A stretch of 64,000 nucleotides of DNA from Pseudomonadota bacterium (GTDB lineage: Bacteria; Pseudomonadota; Alphaproteobacteria; Paracaedibacterales; CAITNM01), in contig JAGOSL010000001.1 in NCBI GenBank assembly GCA_018062345.1, forward strand, positions 39,245-103,244, in the 5' to 3' direction. Each line of letters begins with the position of its first letter. The first letter of the stretch is position 1. The position numbers were made by a program, and so were the translations under genes. A model generated the notes under the pieces. The model was given only the letters and a program-made list of their open reading frames with translations. It had not been told where the DNA came from and did not search any database. Below, piece after piece: positions 3,303-61,976 of this stretch.

Positions 3303-4940
3303 ATGAAAAACTTTAAATACTGCATGGCTTTTGTGTTGGTTTTATCAGCAAGCCTTAGCGCAAGTTACGAGGTGGAAACTGTTGCGGGCCTTGCGGGAGC
3401 TTATGCCCATACAGATGGGGTTGGAACAGCAGCACGTTTTAAACGTCCAGGTATGATGTCGATTGACCTTTCAACAGGCAATTTATTAGAGCCAGATGAA
3501 GATAGCAATATTCGACAAATTACAACTGCTGGTGGGATATATACGGTATCGACTCTGTTTAACTATAATGTTGGAAGTCCCCCCGTGCAAGCCGTTTGTA
3601 CTTATATAACTAGCGATGGAACTTCTTCTATTCTAACGACCGACCAATATTCCCATCTGTATCAATGGATAGAATCAGGCGGAACATACGTTTATAACAC
3701 ATCTTTGGATGCGGTATCCGTCACTGATGCGTATGACGGTTATGGCCTTGTGATTGATAGTAATAATAACATTTTTATGGCTGACGCTTACGAGCAGGTT
3801 ATTTATAAAATTTTACCTAATGGTTCATATTCCTTTTTTGCGGGTCAAGCTTTTTCATCTGGTTCTGCTGATGGTACGGGATCTGCTGCTAAATTTAATG
3901 GTCTTACAGGTATTACCATCGATAGCTCAGGTAATTTATATGTTTCAGACACGAAAAATAACACTATTCGCAAAATCACCCCAGCTGGGGTTGTGACTAC
4001 CATTGCTGGTTTGGCGGGTTCGTCTGGTTCTAGTAATGGTGTGGGATCTGCAGCACGATTTAATAGCCCTTGGGATATTGATATTGATGCAGAAGGAAAC
4101 CTTTATGTAGCTGACCGAGGGAATAATTTGATTCGTAAACTTACTAATAATGGTGGGATTTATACTGTATCAACTATTGCTGGTTTGGCGGGTTCATCTG
4201 GTTCTAGTGATGGTGTGGGATCTGCAGCACGATTTAATGCACCAACAGGGCTTGCGGTTGACAGATTTGGAAGTATATTTGTAAGTGATACAAATAATAG
4301 TACTATCCGTAGGGTTTTCCTGCCAGTTCTTGAGATAGACTTCACAAATGGTGCACAATTAACAGCACCAATCACAGGCGGACTAAAGTTTGCGGGAACC
4401 GGAGATTGTACATTCTTAGGAAGTGCAACAGCTGGAATTGAAATAAACCAAGGTAATATAAAAGTTGCCAGCGCAATACCTTTTGGGGTGTGGGGAGTAG
4501 AAATGACTGGTGGTAGTCTAGAAGCAACTGCTCCAATGACTTTCCCAGCTCTTACTTTGATAAGCGATACCACTGTTAAAGCTGATACAAACAATGTCCA
4601 TGTAGCAACTGCAGGTGGTAGTGGTGAATTAACACTTACAGGTCTTGACGGTTCTGAAGTAATTTATTTAGATGCTATCGCATCAGCTGGTGGGGTAAAT
4701 TCTGCGGCTAATCCAGTACATTTATCAATGCTTACAAATCTGCATACAAACGTAGGAACATTTAATGCATTGTATTTGGATTCATTACCAGGTAGCAATG
4801 TGTACGGAAGTGGTGCGGTAACAGCTTCAGAAGTTGTTGTGGGAGTTAATATTCCAGCAGGAGCATTTCCTGGAACATTAACAACTCAGAAAATTGTACT
4901 TGGATCACATAGCATTAGCCAAGCAGTGATTGCTAACTAA
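3303..4940 (+). CDS. Secreted NHL-repeat beta-propeller protein with a C-terminal G/T/A-rich domain
   Basis: Signal peptide MKNFKYCMAFVLVLSASLSA. Repeated blades of the type GSADGTGSAAKFNGLTGITIDSSGNLYVSDTKNNTIRKITPAGVVTTIAG (NHL-like). GAGGA SD 5 nt upstream. Confidence 0.7.
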   Translation: MKNFKYCMAFVLVLSASLSASYEVETVAGLAGAYAHTDGVGTAARFKRPGMMSIDLSTGNLLEPDEDSNIRQITTAGGIYTVSTLFNYNVGSPPVQAVCTYITSDGTSSILTTDQYSHLYQWIESGGTYVYNTSLDAVSVTDAYDGYGLVIDSNNNIFMADAYEQVIYKILPNGSYSFFAGQAFSSGSADGTGSAAKFNGLTGITIDSSGNLYVSDTKNNTIRKITPAGVVTTIAGLAGSSGSSNGVGSAARFNSPWDIDIDAEGNLYVADRGNNLIRKLTNNGGIYTVSTIAGLAGSSGSSDGVGSAARFNAPTGLAVDRFGSIFVSDTNNSTIRRVFLPVLEIDFTNGAQLTAPITGGLKFAGTGDCTFLGSATAGIEINQGNIKVASAIPFGVWGVEMTGGSLEATAPMTFPALTLISDTTVKADTNNVHVATAGGSGELTLTGLDGSEVIYLDAIASAGGVNSAANPVHLSMLTNLHTNVGTFNALYLDSLPGSNVYGSGAVTASEVVVGVNIPAGAFPGTLTTQKIVLGSHSISQAVIAN

Positions 4941-9266: not shown

Positions 9267-9331
9267 AATTTATAAAAACGCGGTAGTAAAATTTATAAAA
9301 ACGCGGTAATATAGCTTATAAAAATGCGGAT
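9267..9331 (+). repeat. Three direct repeats phased at 23 bp (AATTTATAAAAACGCGGTA x2 identical, third copy 14/19)
   Basis: Copies at 9267-9285, 9290-9308 and 9313-9331. They end 15 nt before the ATG of the ATPase gene, and each contains a TATAAA -10-like hexamer. Confidence 0.8.
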
Positions 9332-10592: not shown

Positions 10593-10620
10593 AAAAAAAC
10601 CCGCCGTGAAGGCGGGTTTT
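10593..10620. terminator. Bidirectional rho-independent terminator
   Basis: AAAAAAA-CCCGCC-GTGAA-GGCGGG-TTTT between convergent genes. Confidence 0.8.
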
Positions 10621-10637: not shown

Positions 10638-11258
10638 TTAGAACTTGTAACCTAAACCTAAAGTGAAGCGTTGTTGAGTTGCTTTAGAGGTCACGTCTGA
10701 ATCTTTCTCGCTAATTTTTGGTCCAAATACGTGCGTGAATTCACCGCGAAGGAAAATGTTCTTGTTTACAAACATATCCATACCTACTGAAGGTGCGAAT
10801 GAAATTTTTTGCTTCTTTCCGGCTGATTCACCATCAACTTTAGCTGACATTTTTGCTCTTTCTAGGCCAAGACCTAAGAAAAGCATAGATTGTGGAGAAA
10901 CAGTGTAACCTAAGCGAGCTTTTGCACCGTAATTGTAACCAATAGTAAGCGTAGATTTAACTCCAGTGTCATCAACTTGACTTATGTTTGTGTTGCCAAG
11001 ATTTAAATAAAGCTCAGCACCAACATATGCGCAAGAACCAACGCCCATTCCGTAACCAGCAAACAAACCGCCGACAAATCCTTTGCCGCCAAGATTACCT
11101 TTGGTGTCTGTAGCTTTATCTTTGACTTGAATGGTTGCTGAGTTTGCTCCAGCTTGAGCACCAGCATAAAATCCGCTGAAAGATGAAGCACAAGAATCAG
11201 CAAATGCTGTTGCGCTTAGTAAAGAAGCAGTAGCTACTGCCATTGTAAATTTTTTCAT
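10638..11258 (-). CDS. Small outer-membrane beta-barrel protein (Omp25/OmpA-like beta-barrel family)
   Basis: Signal peptide MKKFTMAVATASLLSATAFA, alternating amphipathic strands, C-terminal ...FTLGLGYKF. Confidence 0.7.
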   Translation of the reverse strand: MKKFTMAVATASLLSATAFADSCASSFSGFYAGAQAGANSATIQVKDKATDTKGNLGGKGFVGGLFAGYGMGVGSCAYVGAELYLNLGNTNISQVDDTGVKSTLTIGYNYGAKARLGYTVSPQSMLFLGLGLERAKMSAKVDGESAGKKQKISFAPSVGMDMFVNKNIFLRGEFTHVFGPKISEKDSDVTSKATQQRFTLGLGYKF

Positions 11259-11342
11259 ATTATCTCCTAAAAAAATAAAATAGTTATCCTACTAAGGGGA
11301 ATATATATGAAAGGTTATTTGTTCTCTACCAATAATGGCAAA

Positions 11343-11372
11343 TTGCAGCGCTGATTCACAGAAGCGTTGCAA
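11343..11372 (-). terminator. Possible terminator hairpin after ctrA
   Basis: TTGCAGCGCT-N10-AGCGTTGCAA (9/10 complementary), about 20 nt downstream of the ctrA stop. Confidence 0.3.
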
Positions 11373-11391
11373 TATTGCATCAGTTTTCGGT

Positions 11392-12150
11392 TTATAAAAC
11401 CGGAGATCCATGGTGTGCGTGGCTTAACGACTTTGGTAGTGCTGTTTTTTCAGGAAGTGTAAAGAGAGAGTCTGTTTCTGGATCACGTAAAACATATCCA
11501 CGTCCCCACACCGTTTCTATGATGTTGTCATGACCTAGAGCTTCTGTCAACTTACGACGAAGCTTGCAAATAAATACGTCGATGATTTTTAATTCTGGTT
11601 CATCCATACCGCCATAAAGGTGGTTCAAAAACATTTCTTTCGTAAGGGTTGTGCCTTTGCGTAGTGCCAGTAATTCTAAGATAGCGTATTCTTTTCCAGT
11701 GAGGTTGATAGTTGATTTATCAACACTTGCAGTGCGATTTTGTAAGTTTACAACTAATTTTCCTGCACGAATAATTGAGTCACTGTGGCCACGTGAGCGA
11801 CGCACAATAGCGTGAATACGAGCTAATAATTCATTTTTGCTGAATGGTTTGGTTAAATAATCGTCAGCGCCGAATCCGAAGCCTTTGACTTTATCTTCTG
11901 TGTCATTTAGGCCAGAGAGGACAAGTACAGGGGTTTTGATTTGAGAAGAGCGGAGCCTTCGTAAGAGTTCAAAGCCATCCATGTCGGGTAGCATGAGATC
12001 GAGAATGATTAAATCATATTCGTAGATTTTTCCAATTTCTAGGCCATCCTCACCTAAATCAGTACAATCCACCACAAAACCTTCCGATTTTAGAGTGCTT
12101 GTAAGGCCTTTTGCTGTTGCTGAATCGTCTTCAATAAGTAGAATGCGCAT
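11392..12150 (-). CDS. ctrA: Cell-cycle response regulator CtrA (OmpR family)
   Basis: [27 protein letters not shown]...[30 protein letters not shown]...[29 protein letters not shown] closely follows the CtrA sequence as I remember it from Caulobacter and Rickettsia. Confidence 0.85.
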
Positions 12151-12242
12151 ATAATACTCACAATGTATTGCCTAGTTTCTAAATATTATCAAAAATTTTA
12201 AATTTTAACGAGGTTTTTATTTGTGTGTTTTGTTAAGGAAAA

Positions 12243-12257
12243 TTAACAAAATTTTAA
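12243..12257. promoter_or_regulatory. TTAA-N7-TTAA (CtrA-box-like) in the ctrA upstream region
   Basis: TTAACAAAATTTTAA about 95 bp upstream of the ctrA start. The motif is easy to hit by chance in AT-rich DNA. Confidence 0.2.
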
Positions 12258-12344
12258 TAGTATTAACTTTGGTTAACAGAATTAGTGATTGTTATTCAAC
12301 TTTTTTTGCTTGCAAGAATATAAACGTAATACGGCATCTACCCA

Positions 12345-12888
12345 CTGGACCCCGACCTTCGTCGGGGCGACGAACTTTGGCCTTACTTTGTTTAGCATAA
12401 CAGTGGGAATGAAAGCTTGCACACGGCATTTTTAAATGATTAGGAAATGATGGAACTGGACCCCGACTTTAGTTGGGGCGACGAACTTTGGCCTTACTTT
12501 GTTCAGCATAACAGTGGGAATGAAAGCTTGCACACTGCATTTTTGAATGATTGGGAAATGATGGAACTGGACCCCGACCTTCGTCGGGGCGACGAACTTT
12601 GGCCCTACTTTGTTCAGCATAACAGTGGAAATGAAAGCTTGCTCACTGCATTTTTGAATGATTGGGAAATGATGGAACTGGACCCCGACCTTCGTCGGGG
12701 CGACGAACTTTGGCCCTACTTTGTTTAGCATAACAGTGGGAATGAAAGCTTGCACACTGGGTTTTTGAATGATTGGGAAATGATGGAACTGGACCCCGAC
12801 CTTCGTCGGGGCGACGAACTTTGGCCCTACTTTGTTTAGCATAACAGGGGAAATGAAAGCTTGCACGCTGGGTTTATAAATGAGCTGG
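12345..12888. repeat. Tandem array, about 4.9 copies of a 111-bp unit with overlapping palindromes
   Basis: Unit starts at 12345, 12456, 12567, 12678 and 12789 (period exactly 111). Each begins CTGGACCCCGACCTTCGTCGGGGCGACGAAC. The last copy decays into the final codons and stop of tgt. Confidence 0.95.
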
Positions 12889-14061
12889 GTGGCACCATTC
12901 TTTTTGGCAATTATCAAGTGTGTCGTTTTGCAGAGCTTCGCGAATCGCTTTCATAAGTTTATTCATAAAATATACGTTATGGATTGAAATTAGGGTAAAT
13001 GCTAGCATTTCTTGAGCTTTTATAAGGTGGTTAAGGTATCCTCGGCTGGCCCAACTACATGTTTCGCATGTGCAATTCTGTTCAATGGGTTGGTTGTCAT
13101 TAATATAGGTGCTATTGCGCAAATTAATGTGTTCTCGGGTGGTGCTTGGGTTGTTGGCTGGTTTGACCAGAGCTCCTCCATGGCGGGCAAGCCTTGTTGG
13201 GTGCACACAGTCAAAGGTGTCAATTCCCTGGCGAACGCCTGAAAATATATCAGAAATTCCGCCGATGCCTAACAAATGCACGGGGCGGTCTTTTCTTACT
13301 TTTTCCATAGTAAAACAAACAACATCATGCATCTGATTTTTGTTTGCGCCCAAACATCCGCCTACGGCTGTTCCGAAGAAATTGTGCTCATTTGTGAATT
13401 CGCAGCTTTCTTGGCGAAGTTGGGGATAAATACCCCCTTGAATGATTCCGTATAGTTTTTGAGTGCCGTTATCATGAAGTTGCCATTCGTTTAAAGAACG
13501 TAGAGCCCATCTGTGGCTCATGTGCATTGATTTTTGTGTGTAGCTTTGATCGACATGATAAGGAGTGCATTCATCCAAAACTACTATTAAATCAGCGCCG
13601 AGGTTGCGTTGAACGCTGATTGATTCTTCAGGGGTGAGAAAATAAATTTTACCATCAATATAAGATTTAAATTTTGCGCCTTCTTCTGTTATGCGCAATA
13701 GAGTTTTTGGGTGATTGGTTGATCTATTGCCTTTTATTTCGGAGGCAACTGAGCCATGACCAAGGCTGAAAATTTGAAATCCACCTGAATCGGTAAGCAT
13801 GGGGCCGTTCCATCCAGTCATTTTTTGCAACCCGCCAAGAGCCCTAACAGTTTCACCGCCTGGTTGTAGCATGAGATGATAAGTGTTTGATAAAATGATT
13901 TGCGTGTCGGCATTCTTCATTTGAACTGGAGTTAGTGCTTTCATGGCAGCTTTGGTTGCGCAGAAAATGAATGCAGGTGTTTGTATTGTTCCGTGAGGAG
14001 TTGTAAGTGAACCTAAGCGTCCTTGGGGGGTGGATTTTAAAATGTCAAATTTAAATGTCAT
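12874..14061 (-). CDS. tgt: Queuine tRNA-ribosyltransferase
   Basis: ...LTDSGGFQIFSL...VLDECTPY...LLGIGG...CTCETCS... carries Tgt catalytic and zinc-site motifs. Confidence 0.9.
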   Translation of the reverse strand: MTFKFDILKSTPQGRLGSLTTPHGTIQTPAFIFCATKAAMKALTPVQMKNADTQIILSNTYHLMLQPGGETVRALGGLQKMTGWNGPMLTDSGGFQIFSLGHGSVASEIKGNRSTNHPKTLLRITEEGAKFKSYIDGKIYFLTPEESISVQRNLGADLIVVLDECTPYHVDQSYTQKSMHMSHRWALRSLNEWQLHDNGTQKLYGIIQGGIYPQLRQESCEFTNEHNFFGTAVGGCLGANKNQMHDVVCFTMEKVRKDRPVHLLGIGGISDIFSGVRQGIDTFDCVHPTRLARHGGALVKPANNPSTTREHINLRNSTYINDNQPIEQNCTCETCSWASRGYLNHLIKAQEMLAFTLISIHNVYFMNKLMKAIREALQNDTLDNCQKEWCHPAHL

Positions 14062-14797
14062 AAGGCTTTAATCTATAACTTATATATAAGAGTGGAGTTG
14101 AAAGGATGGAAATGAGGGCTCTTAGCATTTGAGAAAAGCCAATAAATCCAATTACAACTGTGGAAATAGGCAGTGGTGACGGCGCAAGAACAATCCAAGC
14201 TAAAAAGCTAAAAACGACTGTGTCAAAAACTCCAGAAATCAACGTTGATGCATTGCCGCGGATCCATAAATAGCTTCCACCATGACGTTTTTTTAAAGCG
14301 GAAAATATGTAAATATCTATGTGTTGAGAAACGACAAAAGCTACTAAGCTTGCGAATAATAATCGTAGGGATGGTGTAAAAAGAGTCTCTAAGGCTGTTT
14401 GCGCTAGACTTTTCTCACTTCCTATTTCTGGGTGACTAATCACAAGTGCCATGCTAATAGTGACAAAAACTTGCATTAAAAATATTAGGTAGATTGTTTT
14501 TTTTGCAAGTGCAGCGCCGTAATGTTCGGTTATCAGATCGCTTGTAGTAAAAAGAGTTGTAAAAACAACTGTTCCTAAAGCAATGGGCTCATTAATAAAA
14601 GGGAATACGCCTAACTTTAAGACTTGCATGTTGGCGATGGTGATAGCTAGCACGCTGTAACATACTAATCCAAAGGCACCGAAATACTTAAAGCTAAGCA
14701 GGATAAAGACAACACAAACAAGAAAACTTATTACCGGCAACGCTTCCACCGGAAGTGTTTTTAGAGCTTCAATAAAATCAAGAAAAAGACTGTCCAC
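14051..14797 (-). CDS. yhhQ: Queuosine-precursor transporter (YhhQ / VUT family, DUF165)
   Basis: Polytopic membrane protein with LWIRGNASTLISGVFDTVVFSFLAW (YhhQ-family motif). Overlaps tgt by 11 nt. Confidence 0.7.
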   Translation of the reverse strand: MDSLFLDFIEALKTLPVEALPVISFLVCVVFILLSFKYFGAFGLVCYSVLAITIANMQVLKLGVFPFINEPIALGTVVFTTLFTTSDLITEHYGAALAKKTIYLIFLMQVFVTISMALVISHPEIGSEKSLAQTALETLFTPSLRLLFASLVAFVVSQHIDIYIFSALKKRHGGSYLWIRGNASTLISGVFDTVVFSFLAWIVLAPSPLPISTVVIGFIGFSQMLRALISILSTPLLYISYRLKPYDI

Positions 14798-15950: not shown

Positions 15951-15985
15951 CGTAAAAAACGTTCTAAAACCCAACACCTTTTGTG
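15951..15985. repeat. Direct repeat copy A (duplicate of the 3' end of the ferredoxin-NADP reductase gene)
   Basis: CGTAAAAAACGTTCTAAAACCCAACACCTTTTGTG is identical to 16586-16619 except for one extra A. Confidence 0.9.
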
Positions 15986-16270
15986 TTAGTGGTGAATTTT
16001 TTTATAGATTTCTTTACGATGGCCGATTGCTACAGCAACAATTATGAGCTTTCCTTTGTCTACGTTGCAAATAGCACGATAATTTCCAACACGAAACCTC
16101 TATAATCCTTCCATTTCTCCAGAAAGGGAGGAAGCAAAAATTAGTGGATTTGGAGCTGTTAGTATGCGGTCTTCGAAATAGTCTAAAATTCTGGATTGTG
16201 TATCTTTTGGTAATTTGGAAAATTGTTTTTTAACATCGGTTTCAAAGAGAAGTTGCCAGATTTTAATCAC
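15986..16270 (-). pseudogene. RelE/ParE-family toxin, interrupted by an in-frame TAG
   Basis: Own translation from GTG 16270: VIKIWQLLFETDVKKQFSKLPKDTQSRILDYFEDRILTAPNPLIFASSLSGEMEGL*RFRVGNYRAICNVDKGKLIIVAVAIGHRKEIYKKIHH. TAG at 16102-16100 sits where this family usually has W or Y (GLWRxRVGDYR). The 8-nt GTGATTAA overlap with the antitoxin stop is typical. Confidence 0.75.
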
Positions 16271-16487
16271 GTTCTAGCTCAAGCTCTTTGCGCATATCTT
16301 CAAGAGAAGTTGCTTTGCGTCCAGATGCTAAATAGCGTTGATATCCTTGAATGCCTATATAATAATCATGTTGGTCTTCCAAGTATTCTTCTAGAGCGCT
16401 TAAAACAAGATTTGACGGTTCTATTGAGAGTTTTTTTGAAACCTCAAGTAAGAATTTTTCTAGGTCTTTTGGAATATCAATTTGCAT
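16263..16487 (-). CDS. Ribbon-helix-helix antitoxin (RelB/ParD/CopG-like)
   Basis: 74 aa. MQIDIPKDLEKFLLEVSKKL...LEEYLEDQHDYYIGIQGYQRYLASGRKATSLEDMRKELELE is a typical RHH antitoxin layout, directly upstream of the toxin remnant. Confidence 0.65.
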   Translation of the reverse strand: MQIDIPKDLEKFLLEVSKKLSIEPSNLVLSALEEYLEDQHDYYIGIQGYQRYLASGRKATSLEDMRKELELERD

Positions 16488-16585
16488 ATCAGCACCTTAA
16501 AAAGTGTAATTCATTGTACCAGATTTTTTGTAAAAAGTATTACATAAAGTGTTATGTATCGAAGCTCATGGTAAATATGTGAATA

Positions 16586-16619
16586 CGTAAAAACGTTCTA
16601 AAACCCAACACCTTTTGTG
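16586..16619. repeat. Direct repeat copy B (native 3' end of the reductase gene plus 12 nt downstream)
   Basis: See copy A. It includes the stop codon (16598-16600) and the last 6 codons (TKGVGF). Confidence 0.9.
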
Positions 16620-58581: not shown

Positions 58582-59790
58582 CTAAGCCTTATTTCTTTTT
58601 AGCTGAATGATAAATCCTATTGCTGCTACAAACAAGCAAATAGGAATAACGCTTAGTCCGTATTGGTACTGTTCATGGCTGAAGTTTCCACCTGGTTGGT
58701 GGTTGCCCATTGTGATGCCAATTATGCTATGAAAAAAGTATCCAAATGTCATAATAATCATGTTAGCTAACGCGGTGGTTATGCTTACGTGACGTTCCCG
58801 CACATATGTACTGGCTACATAAATAACAATAATTTGGTAAGCGCATGCTACACCCACGGCCGTGAATAATGCCGATAATATTTCAGGGGTGCCGAAGCCA
58901 TATAGCATCATTACAAATACTGCTCCCATGAATAAACCTGCGCAGATAATAATTTTTATATGAGCATTTAGGCGGTCTGCTATGTAGGTAAGGCCAGGTG
59001 CGCCGAATAACATGCCTAAAAACATTAAGGATGAGATACCTGCTGCTTTCGCTGGAGCTATTTGATAAACGCTTTGCAGAAAACCAGCCCCCCAAACATC
59101 AGCGAAGCCTTCCAAAGGTCCAAGCATTAGGCCCCCACAAATACAAACTATAAGAACATTTTTGTTTTTAAGTACTTGAATAATGTCATCTAGAATGTTG
59201 TGAGTTGAAATAATTGGCTTATATTTGGAGGGGATGACCACGTATGCTAATACAGCAAGAAAGCTACCGATCCAGCAAAAATATAAAATAATAGTTTGCC
59301 AATGGGTGGTTTCAAGCAAGGTCTTAACCGGAAGTCCACCGTATAAGGCCCCCACAAGGCCAACTGTTACAGAAAGCCCAAGCATTCTATTAAAATGTGA
59401 TTCTGGGAACCCAAGGCGTATGACTCTGAATACGCCTAAAATTGCGCCCGATGAACCTATACCCATGATAAATCGCCCAATATTGGCAGCAACGATGGTG
59501 TCACTAATGAGTAAGGGGATAATGCCAGCAACTGTTGCTAGAATACAAATAGGAAGTATAAATTTAGGATTTTTGCGATCTAGCCAGATTGCTAAAGGAA
59601 TATGAGTTAACGTGTAACCTAAATAATATAGGCCGGCAAACTGACCAAATTCCATGGCATTGGTGTTAAAATGCGTTAGAAGATCTGGCATAATGACATT
59701 TGGAAGAACTCTTAAAACGTACTGATAAGCATAAAACAATGAAGCCACGGCCCACATAGACCAGGCTTGATAGGGGGATAAAGACAACAT
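58582..59790 (-). CDS. MFS transporter
   Basis: 12-TM layout. Paralogous to 60732-61976 (LRVLPNVIMPDLLTHFNTNAMEFGQFAGLYYLGY versus LRLWPSLMMQQIMQQFQIDATGFGVLASVYYYGY). Confidence 0.7.
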   Translation of the reverse strand: MLSLSPYQAWSMWAVASLFYAYQYVLRVLPNVIMPDLLTHFNTNAMEFGQFAGLYYLGYTLTHIPLAIWLDRKNPKFILPICILATVAGIIPLLISDTIVAANIGRFIMGIGSSGAILGVFRVIRLGFPESHFNRMLGLSVTVGLVGALYGGLPVKTLLETTHWQTIILYFCWIGSFLAVLAYVVIPSKYKPIISTHNILDDIIQVLKNKNVLIVCICGGLMLGPLEGFADVWGAGFLQSVYQIAPAKAAGISSLMFLGMLFGAPGLTYIADRLNAHIKIIICAGLFMGAVFVMMLYGFGTPEILSALFTAVGVACAYQIIVIYVASTYVRERHVSITTALANMIIMTFGYFFHSIIGITMGNHQPGGNFSHEQYQYGLSVIPICLFVAAIGFIIQLKRNKA

Positions 59791-60731: not shown

Positions 60732-61976
60732 ATGTCTAGAAAAATTTTACCGTATGCGATGTGGGCATTTCCATTATCGTTTTTTACGTATCAATTCATT
60801 TTGCGTCTGTGGCCCAGTTTAATGATGCAGCAAATCATGCAGCAATTTCAAATTGATGCTACTGGGTTCGGGGTGTTAGCTTCTGTTTATTACTATGGTT
60901 ATGCTGGTATGCAGTTGCCTATAGCTATACTTCTAGAGCGTTTTGGCGCGCGTTACATCGTTTGCATTTGTGCTGTTTTGTGTGGGCTTGCAACGCTTTG
61001 GTTTACCTATACTGATAATTGGGTATTTGCGTTATTAAGCAGATTTCTTATAGGCGCTGGTTCAGCTGCAGGCTTTTTAGCAACATCAAAAGTGATTTCG
61101 GGTTGGTTTGGTCCAAAATATTATGCACGTATGGTTGGATTTTCATTTACTGTTGGGTTACTTGGGGCTATTTACGGGGGAAAGCCTGTTAGTTTGCTTG
61201 TGGAAAGTTTCGGCTGGCAAGATGTTGCTTTTGTTTTGGCTTTGGTCAGTATTAGTATTGGTTTACTGACATTGTTATTCTTAAAAAATAGCGAATTGTT
61301 TAATAAAAATAGCCAGTCATCACTGAGTTTTAAAGATTTACGAAAATTACTAAGTGCCCCAACAATTTGGTTTTTAGCAATTGCTAACCTATTGATGGTA
61401 GGACCTTTAGAAGGATTTGCTGATGTTTGGGGAGTTAATTATTTAATACAGGCTATTGCGGTGAATAAATCTGATGCAGCAGGTTTTGTTTCATATATTT
61501 TTGTAGGTATGCTGTTTGGTGGCCCATTACTAGCTGCCTGGGCAAAGCGCGTTAGCAATTATTCTGTTATTGCATTTTGCAGTGCGGGAATGGTGTTGGC
61601 ATTTTTGTGGTTACTGTATGCCCACACATTTTTAAACACATATACTCTTTCAGCTATATTTTTTGTTGTAGGTATTTTGTGTTGTTACCAGGTGTTAGTT
61701 TTTGCAAGTGGAAGTGAACTGGTAGCACCAGCTATGCTGGGTATTACAATTGCATTTTTAAATTGCATAAATATGTTAGGTGGATCATTTTTTCATAGCA
61801 CAATAGGCTGGGCAATGGATCAATTTTGGGCAGGAGAGTTGCTTGATGGAATTCGTGTTTACACAGTGTCATCATATCAAAAATCATTGCTGATTATTCC
61901 TATTGCTGCTGCAGTGGGTGGTGTGATTGTTATTATTCTTGGTGCAAAAAGGTCTAAAAATAATATAGTGAATTAA
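60732..61976 (+). CDS. MFS transporter (paralog of 58582-59790)
   Basis: 12-TM layout. Start at MSRKILPYAMWAF. Confidence 0.7.
   Translation: MSRKILPYAMWAFPLSFFTYQFILRLWPSLMMQQIMQQFQIDATGFGVLASVYYYGYAGMQLPIAILLERFGARYIVCICAVLCGLATLWFTYTDNWVFALLSRFLIGAGSAAGFLATSKVISGWFGPKYYARMVGFSFTVGLLGAIYGGKPVSLLVESFGWQDVAFVLALVSISIGLLTLLFLKNSELFNKNSQSSLSFKDLRKLLSAPTIWFLAIANLLMVGPLEGFADVWGVNYLIQAIAVNKSDAAGFVSYIFVGMLFGGPLLAAWAKRVSNYSVIAFCSAGMVLAFLWLLYAHTFLNTYTLSAIFFVVGILCCYQVLVFASGSELVAPAMLGITIAFLNCINMLGGSFFHSTIGWAMDQFWAGELLDGIRVYTVSSYQKSLLIIPIAAAVGGVIVIILGAKRSKNNIVN

Follow-up and report, generated by a model that had tools for sequence, protein, structure and literature searches.

The window analysed here is a stretch of 64,000 nucleotides from an alphaproteobacterial genome (GenBank assembly GCA_018062345.1, contig JAGOSL010000001.1, positions 39,245 to 103,244 of the forward strand), and the element in question is an array of 111-bp tandem repeats situated in it between the genes tgt and ctrA. 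Each repeat contains a hairpin of the kind known as Ssn-related motif (SRM), and on the side of ctrA the array is followed by the first codons of a small nuclease gene, ssn. Below, sequences used for comparison carry L numbers and proteins from databases P numbers. The features of the locus, from tgt to ctrA, are the following:

12874 to 14061, minus strand: tgt, queuine tRNA-ribosyltransferase (Pfam TGT, 1e-122)
12344 to 12890, minus strand: tandem array of about five units of 111 bp (Tandem Repeats Finder, unit alignments)
12789 to 12816, minus strand: SRM hairpin, copy nearest tgt, CGTC GCCCCGAC GAAG GTCGGGGT CCAG (SRM scan, core scan)
12678 to 12705, minus strand: SRM hairpin, allele A (SRM scan, core scan)
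12567 to 12594, minus strand: SRM hairpin, allele A (SRM scan, core scan)
12456 to 12483, minus strand: SRM hairpin, allele B, CGTC GCCCCAAC TAAA GTCGGGGT CCAG (SRM scan, core scan)
12345 to 12372, minus strand: SRM hairpin, allele A, last copy (SRM scan, core scan)
12296 to 12337, minus strand: remnant of an ssn (small GIY-YIG nuclease) gene, MPYYVYILASKKS and then a stop (tblastn, DNA alignment)
12151 to 12295, minus strand: AT-rich upstream region of ctrA with TTAA-rich boxes (comparison by eye with L011, L012 and L013)
11392 to 12150, minus strand: ctrA response regulator (NCBIfam NF045991, CtrA equivalog, 387.7 bits against a cut-off of 350)

Tandem Repeats Finder recognised 12344-12870 as the one strong array of the window, with a period of 111, 4.7 copies, 94 % matches, 0 % indels and a score of 935. 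A sequence-only reading had placed the units at 12345, 12456, 12567, 12678 and 12789, and these align without gaps and in register. Every unit is made up of an 83-nt spacer and a 28-nt SRM hairpin, and all are arranged head-to-tail in the orientation of tgt and ctrA. As had been proposed, the array stands between these two genes, whose identities are upheld by the profile matches; it is downstream of tgt and upstream of ctrA, on their sense strand. Also as proposed, it is richer in G+C than the spacer towards ctrA at 12109-12330 (0.44-0.50 vs 0.23-0.27) and its fifth copy decays into the end of tgt, where similarity to the unit continues for about 15 nt across the last codons and the stop. Besides tgt and ctrA, the genes identified by Pfam near the array code for an outer membrane protein (OMP), Vut_1 and DUF2608.

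The motif of the minus strand reads CGTC-GCCCCGAC-GAAG-GTCGGGGT-CCAG, is 28 nt long and is present once per unit. A generic scan for SRMs found the CGTC tag directly 5′ of all five stems. The stem consists of 8 pairs, one of them G-T, the 4-nt loop GAAG fits GMAV, a C stands straight after the palindrome and the tail is CCAG in 5/5 copies. This architecture was found five times in the window, always inside the array. The 28-mer has 5 occurrences at up to 3 mismatches compared to 0 in 100 shuffles, and four of the seven perfect G+C-rich 7-bp hairpins in the whole 64 kb are located within the array.

SRMs are known as the targets of Ssn, single-domain GIY-YIG proteins of family cd10448, which are site-specific nucleases of single-stranded DNA (ssDNA) (Chenal et al. 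2025, PMC11893778). The targets are oriented hairpins, the NTS CGTCATTCCCGCGMAVGCGGGAATCYRG in Neisseria and the SRM in general. In the species studied, Ssn proteins bind the hairpin as ssDNA and on the CGTC strand only; they cut a few nt upstream of the motif and are inactive on double-stranded DNA, RNA and the reverse strand (PMC11893778). SRMs were found near 71 % of ssn homologues, and the layout NTS-ssnA-NTS was described as insertion sequence (IS)-like (PMC11893778). The window motif shares with SRM and NTS the CGTC tag, the 8-bp stem, the 4-nt GMAV-type loop, the C after the stem and the CYRG tail. It differs from the Neisseria NTS in the sequence of the stem (GCCCCGAC/GTCGGGGT vs ATTCCCGC/GCGGGAAT).

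The association with an ssn gene is found here as well, as a stump in the window and as an intact, bracketed gene at a second locus. The 65 nt past the last hairpin contain the first 13 ssn codons: the remnant is an ATG plus 12 codons (coding part 12337 to 12299) and then a stop. The last hairpin lies 7 nt upstream of this ATG, which equals the spacing before the intact ssn, and the window sequence after the hairpin, GGGTAGATGCCGTATTACGTTTATATTCTTGCAAGCAAAAAAAG, matches the start of the intact gene. With the 95-aa protein of the second locus as a query, tblastn recovered the stump with 11/13 identical residues and an E value of 0.006. On the DNA level, the window and the intact locus are identical save for 3 variable columns through column 100 and diverge thereafter; the homology to the intact gene stops after approximately codon 12 and gives way to the ctrA upstream region. 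The stump is also present in L021 and L027 and the deletion should therefore be older than the split of these strains.

The intact gene was recovered by scanning metagenomes with the hairpin and its 3′ flank. The scan resulted in 8 contigs, some of which represent the tgt-ctrA locus of other strains, and the second locus (locus B) is carried by L026, L030, L023 and L028, and also by L022. The order at locus B is the stop of the upstream gene, two 111-type units, the hairpin, 7 nt and the ATG of the 95-aa open reading frame (ORF), then the ORF stop, 5 nt, an inverted core, about 130 nt and an array with a period of 75 bp. The inverted 27-nt cores that bracket the intact ssn are identical at 26/27 positions, so locus B has the SRM-ssn-SRM layout, with inverted copies near both ends of a gene of about 95 codons. 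Its protein was recognised by Pfam as GIY-YIG (8.8e-16) and is 56 % identical to a protein of N. gonorrhoeae that sits among NTS repeats. A sequence search of the PDB gave only a weak match to the UPF0213 protein BH0048, and no solved Ssn.

The copy number of the 75-bp array at locus B is 9.7 in L026 (1599-2329), 4 in L023 and 2-3 in the other contigs. With the 111-bp unit this array shares only a core of about 46 nt, composed of the hairpin and TTCCATCATTTCC, and in several of its units the stem is broken by variants such as CGCGCCGAC and GTCGTGG. The tail variants TCTAG and TTTAG also occur at this locus. In L022 the nuclease gene is missing and a 111-type unit adjoins 75-type units directly, a junction that looks like a deletion between repeated cores. 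The two loci co-occur in three datasets (GCA_013558295.1, JGI 3300013132 and JGI 3300014720), all with a G+C content of about 39 %, and because of this co-occurrence and the matching G+C both loci are probably those of one organism.

The pairing of hairpin and nuclease gene extends beyond this organism. Searching plasmid and chromosome records with the 95-aa protein (tblastn) resulted in 33 homologues of 42-56 % identity. All five of the homologues inspected (N. gonorrhoeae, Azospirillum, Novosphingobium, Sinorhizobium and Aeromonas) have hairpins on either side, here of the form GTCAYYCC...GGRRTCCAG, and two further homologues, in relatives with 82 % identical Tgt, are likewise flanked by CGTC hairpins. 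Altogether, CGTC hairpins flank 8/8 ssn-type genes inspected, from six lineages. We aligned the window motif with 14 hand-picked motifs from other lineages, namely SRMs standing beside ssn homologues of Neisseria, Azospirillum, Aeromonas and a relative, and the hairpins of a Sphingomonas plasmid and a metagenome-assembled genome (MAG), where no ssn gene was found. In this hand-picked alignment 99.2 % of the cells pair and 4/8 pairs show compensatory changes, which is matched by 0/500 shuffles.

Direct DNA searches gave few matches. The only match of three units against plasmids by blastn was a 24-nt hairpin in the Sphingomonas plasmid, and a scan of the genome collection with the hairpin and its upstream flank recovered a single match, in the unrelated G+C-rich MAG L001; the species of the window is seemingly not in the collection. 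Near-identical hairpins (CTGGACCCCGACYTTCGTCGGGG) are present in L004 (2173-2528, Sphingomonas parapaucimobilis plasmid NZ_CP155753) and L001 (2436-2556). They form inverted intergenic pairs with no nuclease gene between them, in unrelated G+C-rich bacteria, and the Sphingomonas pair spans 356 bp, near the size of the ssn cassette (354 bp).

The history of the locus can be followed in relatives. The nearest other lineages by Tgt identity are L012 (89 %), L013 (86 %) and L011 (85 %), and all three lack the array and the hairpin; their tgt stop runs directly into the AT-rich ctrA upstream region with TTAA boxes. The gap between tgt and ctrA measures 121 nt in L012, 146 nt in L011 and 723 nt in the window, while the L013 contig ends before ctrA, and the roughly 580 extra nt of the window correspond to the array and the ssn stump (12296-12343). 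Because 12151-12295 is kept in relatives without the array, it appears to be the ancestral sequence that once stood directly after tgt. In the window, the C-terminal PAHL codons and the stop of tgt are supplied by the unit nearest to the gene, and beyond EWC the C-terminus of Tgt differs in every relative lineage. The similarity of the unit reaching into the end of tgt, together with this lineage-specific C-terminus, suggests that the insertion rewrote the end of the gene. From these comparisons, the array is apparently a recent insertion in this lineage.

Three other ideas about the repeats were dropped. Origin from a duplicated 3′ end of tgt disagrees with the different and shorter tgt end of the relatives, an array of CtrA boxes with the position of the TTAA boxes outside the repeats, and a CRISPR-like array with the conservation of the whole unit, in which there are no spacers. 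In relatives with 82 % identical Tgt (L016, also L017-L020), a different ssn-like GIY-YIG gene lies between tgt and ctrA on the opposite strand, and another ssn-like gene follows the OMP gene. Each of them is bracketed in L016 (11150-11960 and 13500-14380) by CGTC-type hairpins of different sequence. The tgt-ctrA gap therefore seems to be a landing site used more than once.

Between close strains (98.5-98.8 % identical to the window) the array itself varies. The order of the units differs, and the sole other complete array, in L021, consists of five units at spacings of 111, 92, 111 and 111, so its total length is different. Another locus of the window also differs between strains: a cassette of about 600 bp at 15955-16619, with identical 31-nt direct repeats at its two ends (15955-15985 and 16589-16619), contains genes for a DUF6290-like antitoxin (16263 to 16487, minus strand) and a ParE-like toxin cut to 56 aa (16100 to 16270, minus strand). 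The toxin has 94 aa in strain L005, and in strain L003, which has an identical Tgt, the whole cassette is missing.

The hairpin alleles vary as well. The sequence-only reading had pointed to three substitutions in copy 2, and they indeed occupy columns 13, 16 and 19 of the unit, where each hits a third codon position of the minus frame and leaves the peptide (PTK) unchanged. The allele they define, allele B (CCCCAACTAAAGTCGGGG), accounts for 7/45 copies, across strains and at both loci, and was seen in L005, L006, L008, L025 and L026. Because it recurs across strains and loci, the three changes are to be regarded as a single old hairpin haplotype, spread by exchange between units, and not as three independent events. 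The allele introduces an A-C mismatch on the motif strand, and its minimum-energy fold as ssDNA reaches only -2.7 kcal/mol compared to -8.7 kcal/mol for allele A.

Di Nocera et al. (2013, PMC3733652) had already placed these hairpins among the CGTC-tagged REPs, for which no transposase was known. The window repeats share with the CGTC-1 REPs the terminal CGTC, the 8-bp stem, the 4-nt loop, the unpaired CCA tail, the alphaproteobacterial host and the site downstream of a coding region. They depart from them at the first two stem pairs, near-invariantly A-T in CGTC-1 (PMC3733652) and G-T and C-G in the window, and in arrangement, as CGTC-1 REPs are mostly head-to-head dimers (PMC3733652) whereas here we see one orientation and an exact 111-bp spacing. 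Genomes rich in SRMs contain hundreds of copies, in contrast to the two loci with homogeneous head-to-tail tandem arrays here, and unlike in known Ssn systems the nuclease gene at the window locus is down to 13 codons.

Two further types of arrays resemble the one in the window. In the NIME arrays of Neisseria, RS elements of 50-150 bp lie between dRS3 hairpins (PMC1797815). The likeness lies in G+C-rich hairpins alternating with spacers of lower G+C (about 50-85 nt), in fixed chromosomal sites and in strain-variable repeat order and array length; NIME arrays, however, mix many RS families, whereas the window repeats one unit almost exactly, and the window hairpin lacks the dRS3 consensus ATTCCC-N8-GGGAAT. 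VNTR-105 and VNTR-141 of Wolbachia, also an intracellular alphaproteobacterium in its way of life, have periods of 105-141 bp that are 98-99 % alike and vary in copy number and internal deletions, for which slipped-strand mispairing at the hairpin was proposed as the cause (Riegler et al. 2012, PMC3287509). Like them, the window array is an intergenic tandem repeat with a period in the range of about 100-140 bp and a hairpin in each period, varying between close strains. The Wolbachia repeats have 9-bp stems in 23 bp and no adjoining remnant of a nuclease gene was reported for them, and the likeness is one of description.

From this evidence we consider the array to be probably non-coding debris of an SRM-ssn cassette, in which the hairpin units turned into a variable-number repeat, and we assign this interpretation a probability of roughly 0.78. 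Of the explanations offered by the sequence-only reading, the REP/RPE-like amplifiable palindrome was essentially right, and the palindrome can now be named as a CGTC-tagged REP, or SRM, beside an ssn stump. The kind of element is already known, here in the form of a minisatellite next to a decayed ssn gene, and the departures from the known families are the first stem pairs other than A-T, the exact head-to-tail period and the presence at two known loci. The cassette (units, SRM and ssn) would have entered the 3′ end of tgt by insertion or recombination, replacing its last codons, in the recent ancestry of an uncultured Holosporales-like alphaproteobacterium. The nuclease gene would then have been deleted beyond approximately codon 12, while the unit of spacer and hairpin may have multiplied and been reshuffled by slipped-strand mispairing and unequal exchange, both aided by the hairpin; such a mechanism was put forward for the Wolbachia VNTR-105/141 (PMC3287509) and for the dynamic NIME arrays (PMC1797815). 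Nicking of exposed single strands by Ssn may add to the change of the array.

Several points weigh against this interpretation. The remnant has only 13 codons, and the case is built mainly on its near-identical DNA with the intact locus, which is assigned to the same organism by co-occurrence in three datasets and by matching G+C. The hairpin is known at two loci only and from nowhere else in the 64-kb window, in contrast to the classic SRM-rich genomes, and head-to-tail tandems were called negligible for CGTC REPs in general (PMC3733652). Every hairpin variant within the species breaks a pair, giving no sign of present-day structural selection.

A bolder version of the same history would make SRM-ssn-SRM a truly mobile element, which inserts at stop codons, loses its nuclease by decay and leaves orphan hairpins to be amplified by Ssn nicks. 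We regard this version as tentative and rather doubtful.

It is unlikely, in our opinion, that the array is instead a selected cis-acting element of RNA or DNA, i.e. a set of stem-loops stabilising the tgt mRNA, an insulator or terminator, or a switch between two hairpins. Its position precisely between the stop of tgt and the promoter of ctrA, on the transcribed strand, would suit such a role, and REPs downstream of genes are often considered RNA elements (PMC3733652). The hairpin block is also less variable across strains (3/31 columns) than the spacer (18/80). As to the structure, the two overlapping hairpins noted in the sequence are present, but they are far from equal: with RNA parameters, the energy of hairpin 1 is -14.8 kcal/mol, a strong structure, and that of hairpin 2 is -7.6 kcal/mol, about 7 kcal/mol weaker, and with DNA parameters hairpin 1 is the minimum-energy structure. 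Among 22 distinct copies from within the species, hairpin 1 pairs in 93.8 % of the cells and hairpin 2 in 81.2 %, with no compensatory change in either, which made the covariation check uninformative. Folding of the whole array is unremarkable (z about -1.6 on either strand). Relatives in which tgt abuts the ctrA promoter have no hairpin at all, and copy order and unit length vary freely among strains.

The more specific functions fared no better. A search of 11000-14500 against Rfam at a permissive threshold gave chance-level matches only, the best having an E value of 1.4, far below the gathering scores, and those inside the array reaching about 8-9. There is no U-tract 3′ of hairpin 1, and no terminator-like site was found on the strand of tgt and ctrA. 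Hence Rfam, the terminator scan, the hairpin energies and the covariation check all leave the options of an RNA switch, terminator or insulator unsupported. An effect of the array on tgt mRNA or ctrA expression is possible, although unsupported and not needed to explain the sequence. The window does contain a two-way terminator-like hairpin, AAAAAA-ACCCGCC-GTGAA-GGCGGGT-TTT, at 10599-10617 between the convergent genes for a DUF4143 ATPase and the OMP; the hairpins of the array lack flanking runs of this kind.

We find it very unlikely that the five copies were created by the assembly from a repeat that is in reality single-copy or shorter. Contigs from short reads often end at or inside the array. 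The same five units were found in just one other contig, L002, which over 12.4 kb is 100 % identical to the window and therefore gives no independent test of the copy number. However, the unit alignment shows that each window unit can be distinguished from its neighbours at diagnostic positions, and five other assemblies of strains about 98.6 % identical to the window show consecutive units with variants of their own (at least two in L005, at least three in L006, L008 and L025, at least five in L021). The 9.7-copy array at the second locus also speaks against an artefact.

Still less probable is that the element belongs to another mobile-repeat system, REPIN/RAYT or a MITE of a DDE transposon, and that the ssn fragment beside it is coincidental. 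It is palindromic, repeated and intergenic, as such elements are, and the inverted hairpin pairs of the Sphingomonas plasmid and MAG L001 have no nuclease gene between them. The tag, on the other hand, is CGTC and not the GTAG of REPIN/RAYT systems, Pfam detected no RAYT (tyrosine transposase) or other transposase adjoining the array in the window, and the flanking of all eight inspected ssn-type genes by CGTC hairpins agrees with the published 71 % (PMC11893778).

The idea of a young gene for a protein with 37-residue repeats can be rejected, as the array is already contradicted as a coding repeat by frames that are broken by stops or by the 92-nt unit in other strains. The 161-aa minus-strand ORF and the 93-aa plus-strand ORF described earlier both exist and are open across several units, such ORFs are called by gene callers in public assemblies, and the CAG/TAG difference is, like the three changes of copy 2, synonymous in the minus frame. 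Open frames are nevertheless expected by chance, because, if one frame of a 37-codon unit happens to have no stop, it remains open however often the unit is repeated. The minus ORF, which begins at a TTG within tgt, does not span the array, being interrupted by a stop between units 2 and 1; its 'SVQAFI' frame has an in-array stop also in L021, L006 and L008 and is shifted by the 92-nt unit in L021. In the plus frame there are TAG stops in all strains checked but one, and the sole open case is the two-unit fragment L005. In consequence, neither of the two ORFs is kept across the strains. Of the 14 variable columns, 6 are at first, 2 at second and 6 at third codon positions, so the codon-position test shows no bias, and neither ORF had a Pfam match reaching the threshold. 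Searches with both ORFs among 5.8 billion proteins found translations of such arrays as the sole relatives: P0121 comes from the tgt-ctrA array, P0123 from the array of the second locus, and P0122 is encoded on a 326-nt contig whose array context was not inspected. These ORFs (P0121-P0123) are without support as genes.

The window contains a few other repeats. A 23-bp tandem repeat (AATTTATAAAAACGCGGTAATAA, 2.7 copies) at 9267-9329, just upstream of the gene for the AAA_14/DUF4143 ATPase, is kept in L021. In-gene repeats are present at 3371-4238 and 34985-35215; one family has units about 165-456 nt apart in an NHL-repeat-like region, and the units of the second are 81-102 nt apart. An inverted pair of 52 nt (58707-58758 and 61767-61818, 73 % complementary) encloses a nested pair of 38 nt (59090-59127 and 61395-61432, 87 % complementary), and these pairs, about 2.3-3 kb apart, may reflect inverted paralogous genes or a bounded element.

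The Ssn/SRM system was first described in 2025, and the locus offers a compact natural example of it, with an intact cassette, a decayed cassette and two types of units (111 and 75 bp) whose number grows and shrinks between near-identical strains. It supports, without proving, the movement of ssn cassettes and the seeding of minisatellites by hairpins. For practical purposes, the array is a ready marker for strain typing and a known cause of contig breaks. If the genome keeps an intact ssn, the minus strand of the array, i.e. the sense strand of tgt and ctrA, would be a set of predicted Ssn sites, and if this gene is expressed, the strand would offer four good sites and one weakened by allele B. 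Should SRM-ssn-SRM prove truly mobile, Ssn would be the long-missing mobilising enzyme of the CGTC REPs and the tgt-ctrA gap a recurrent landing site, and the DNA beside the master regulator of the cell cycle could be a preferred site of single-strand cleavage and recombination.

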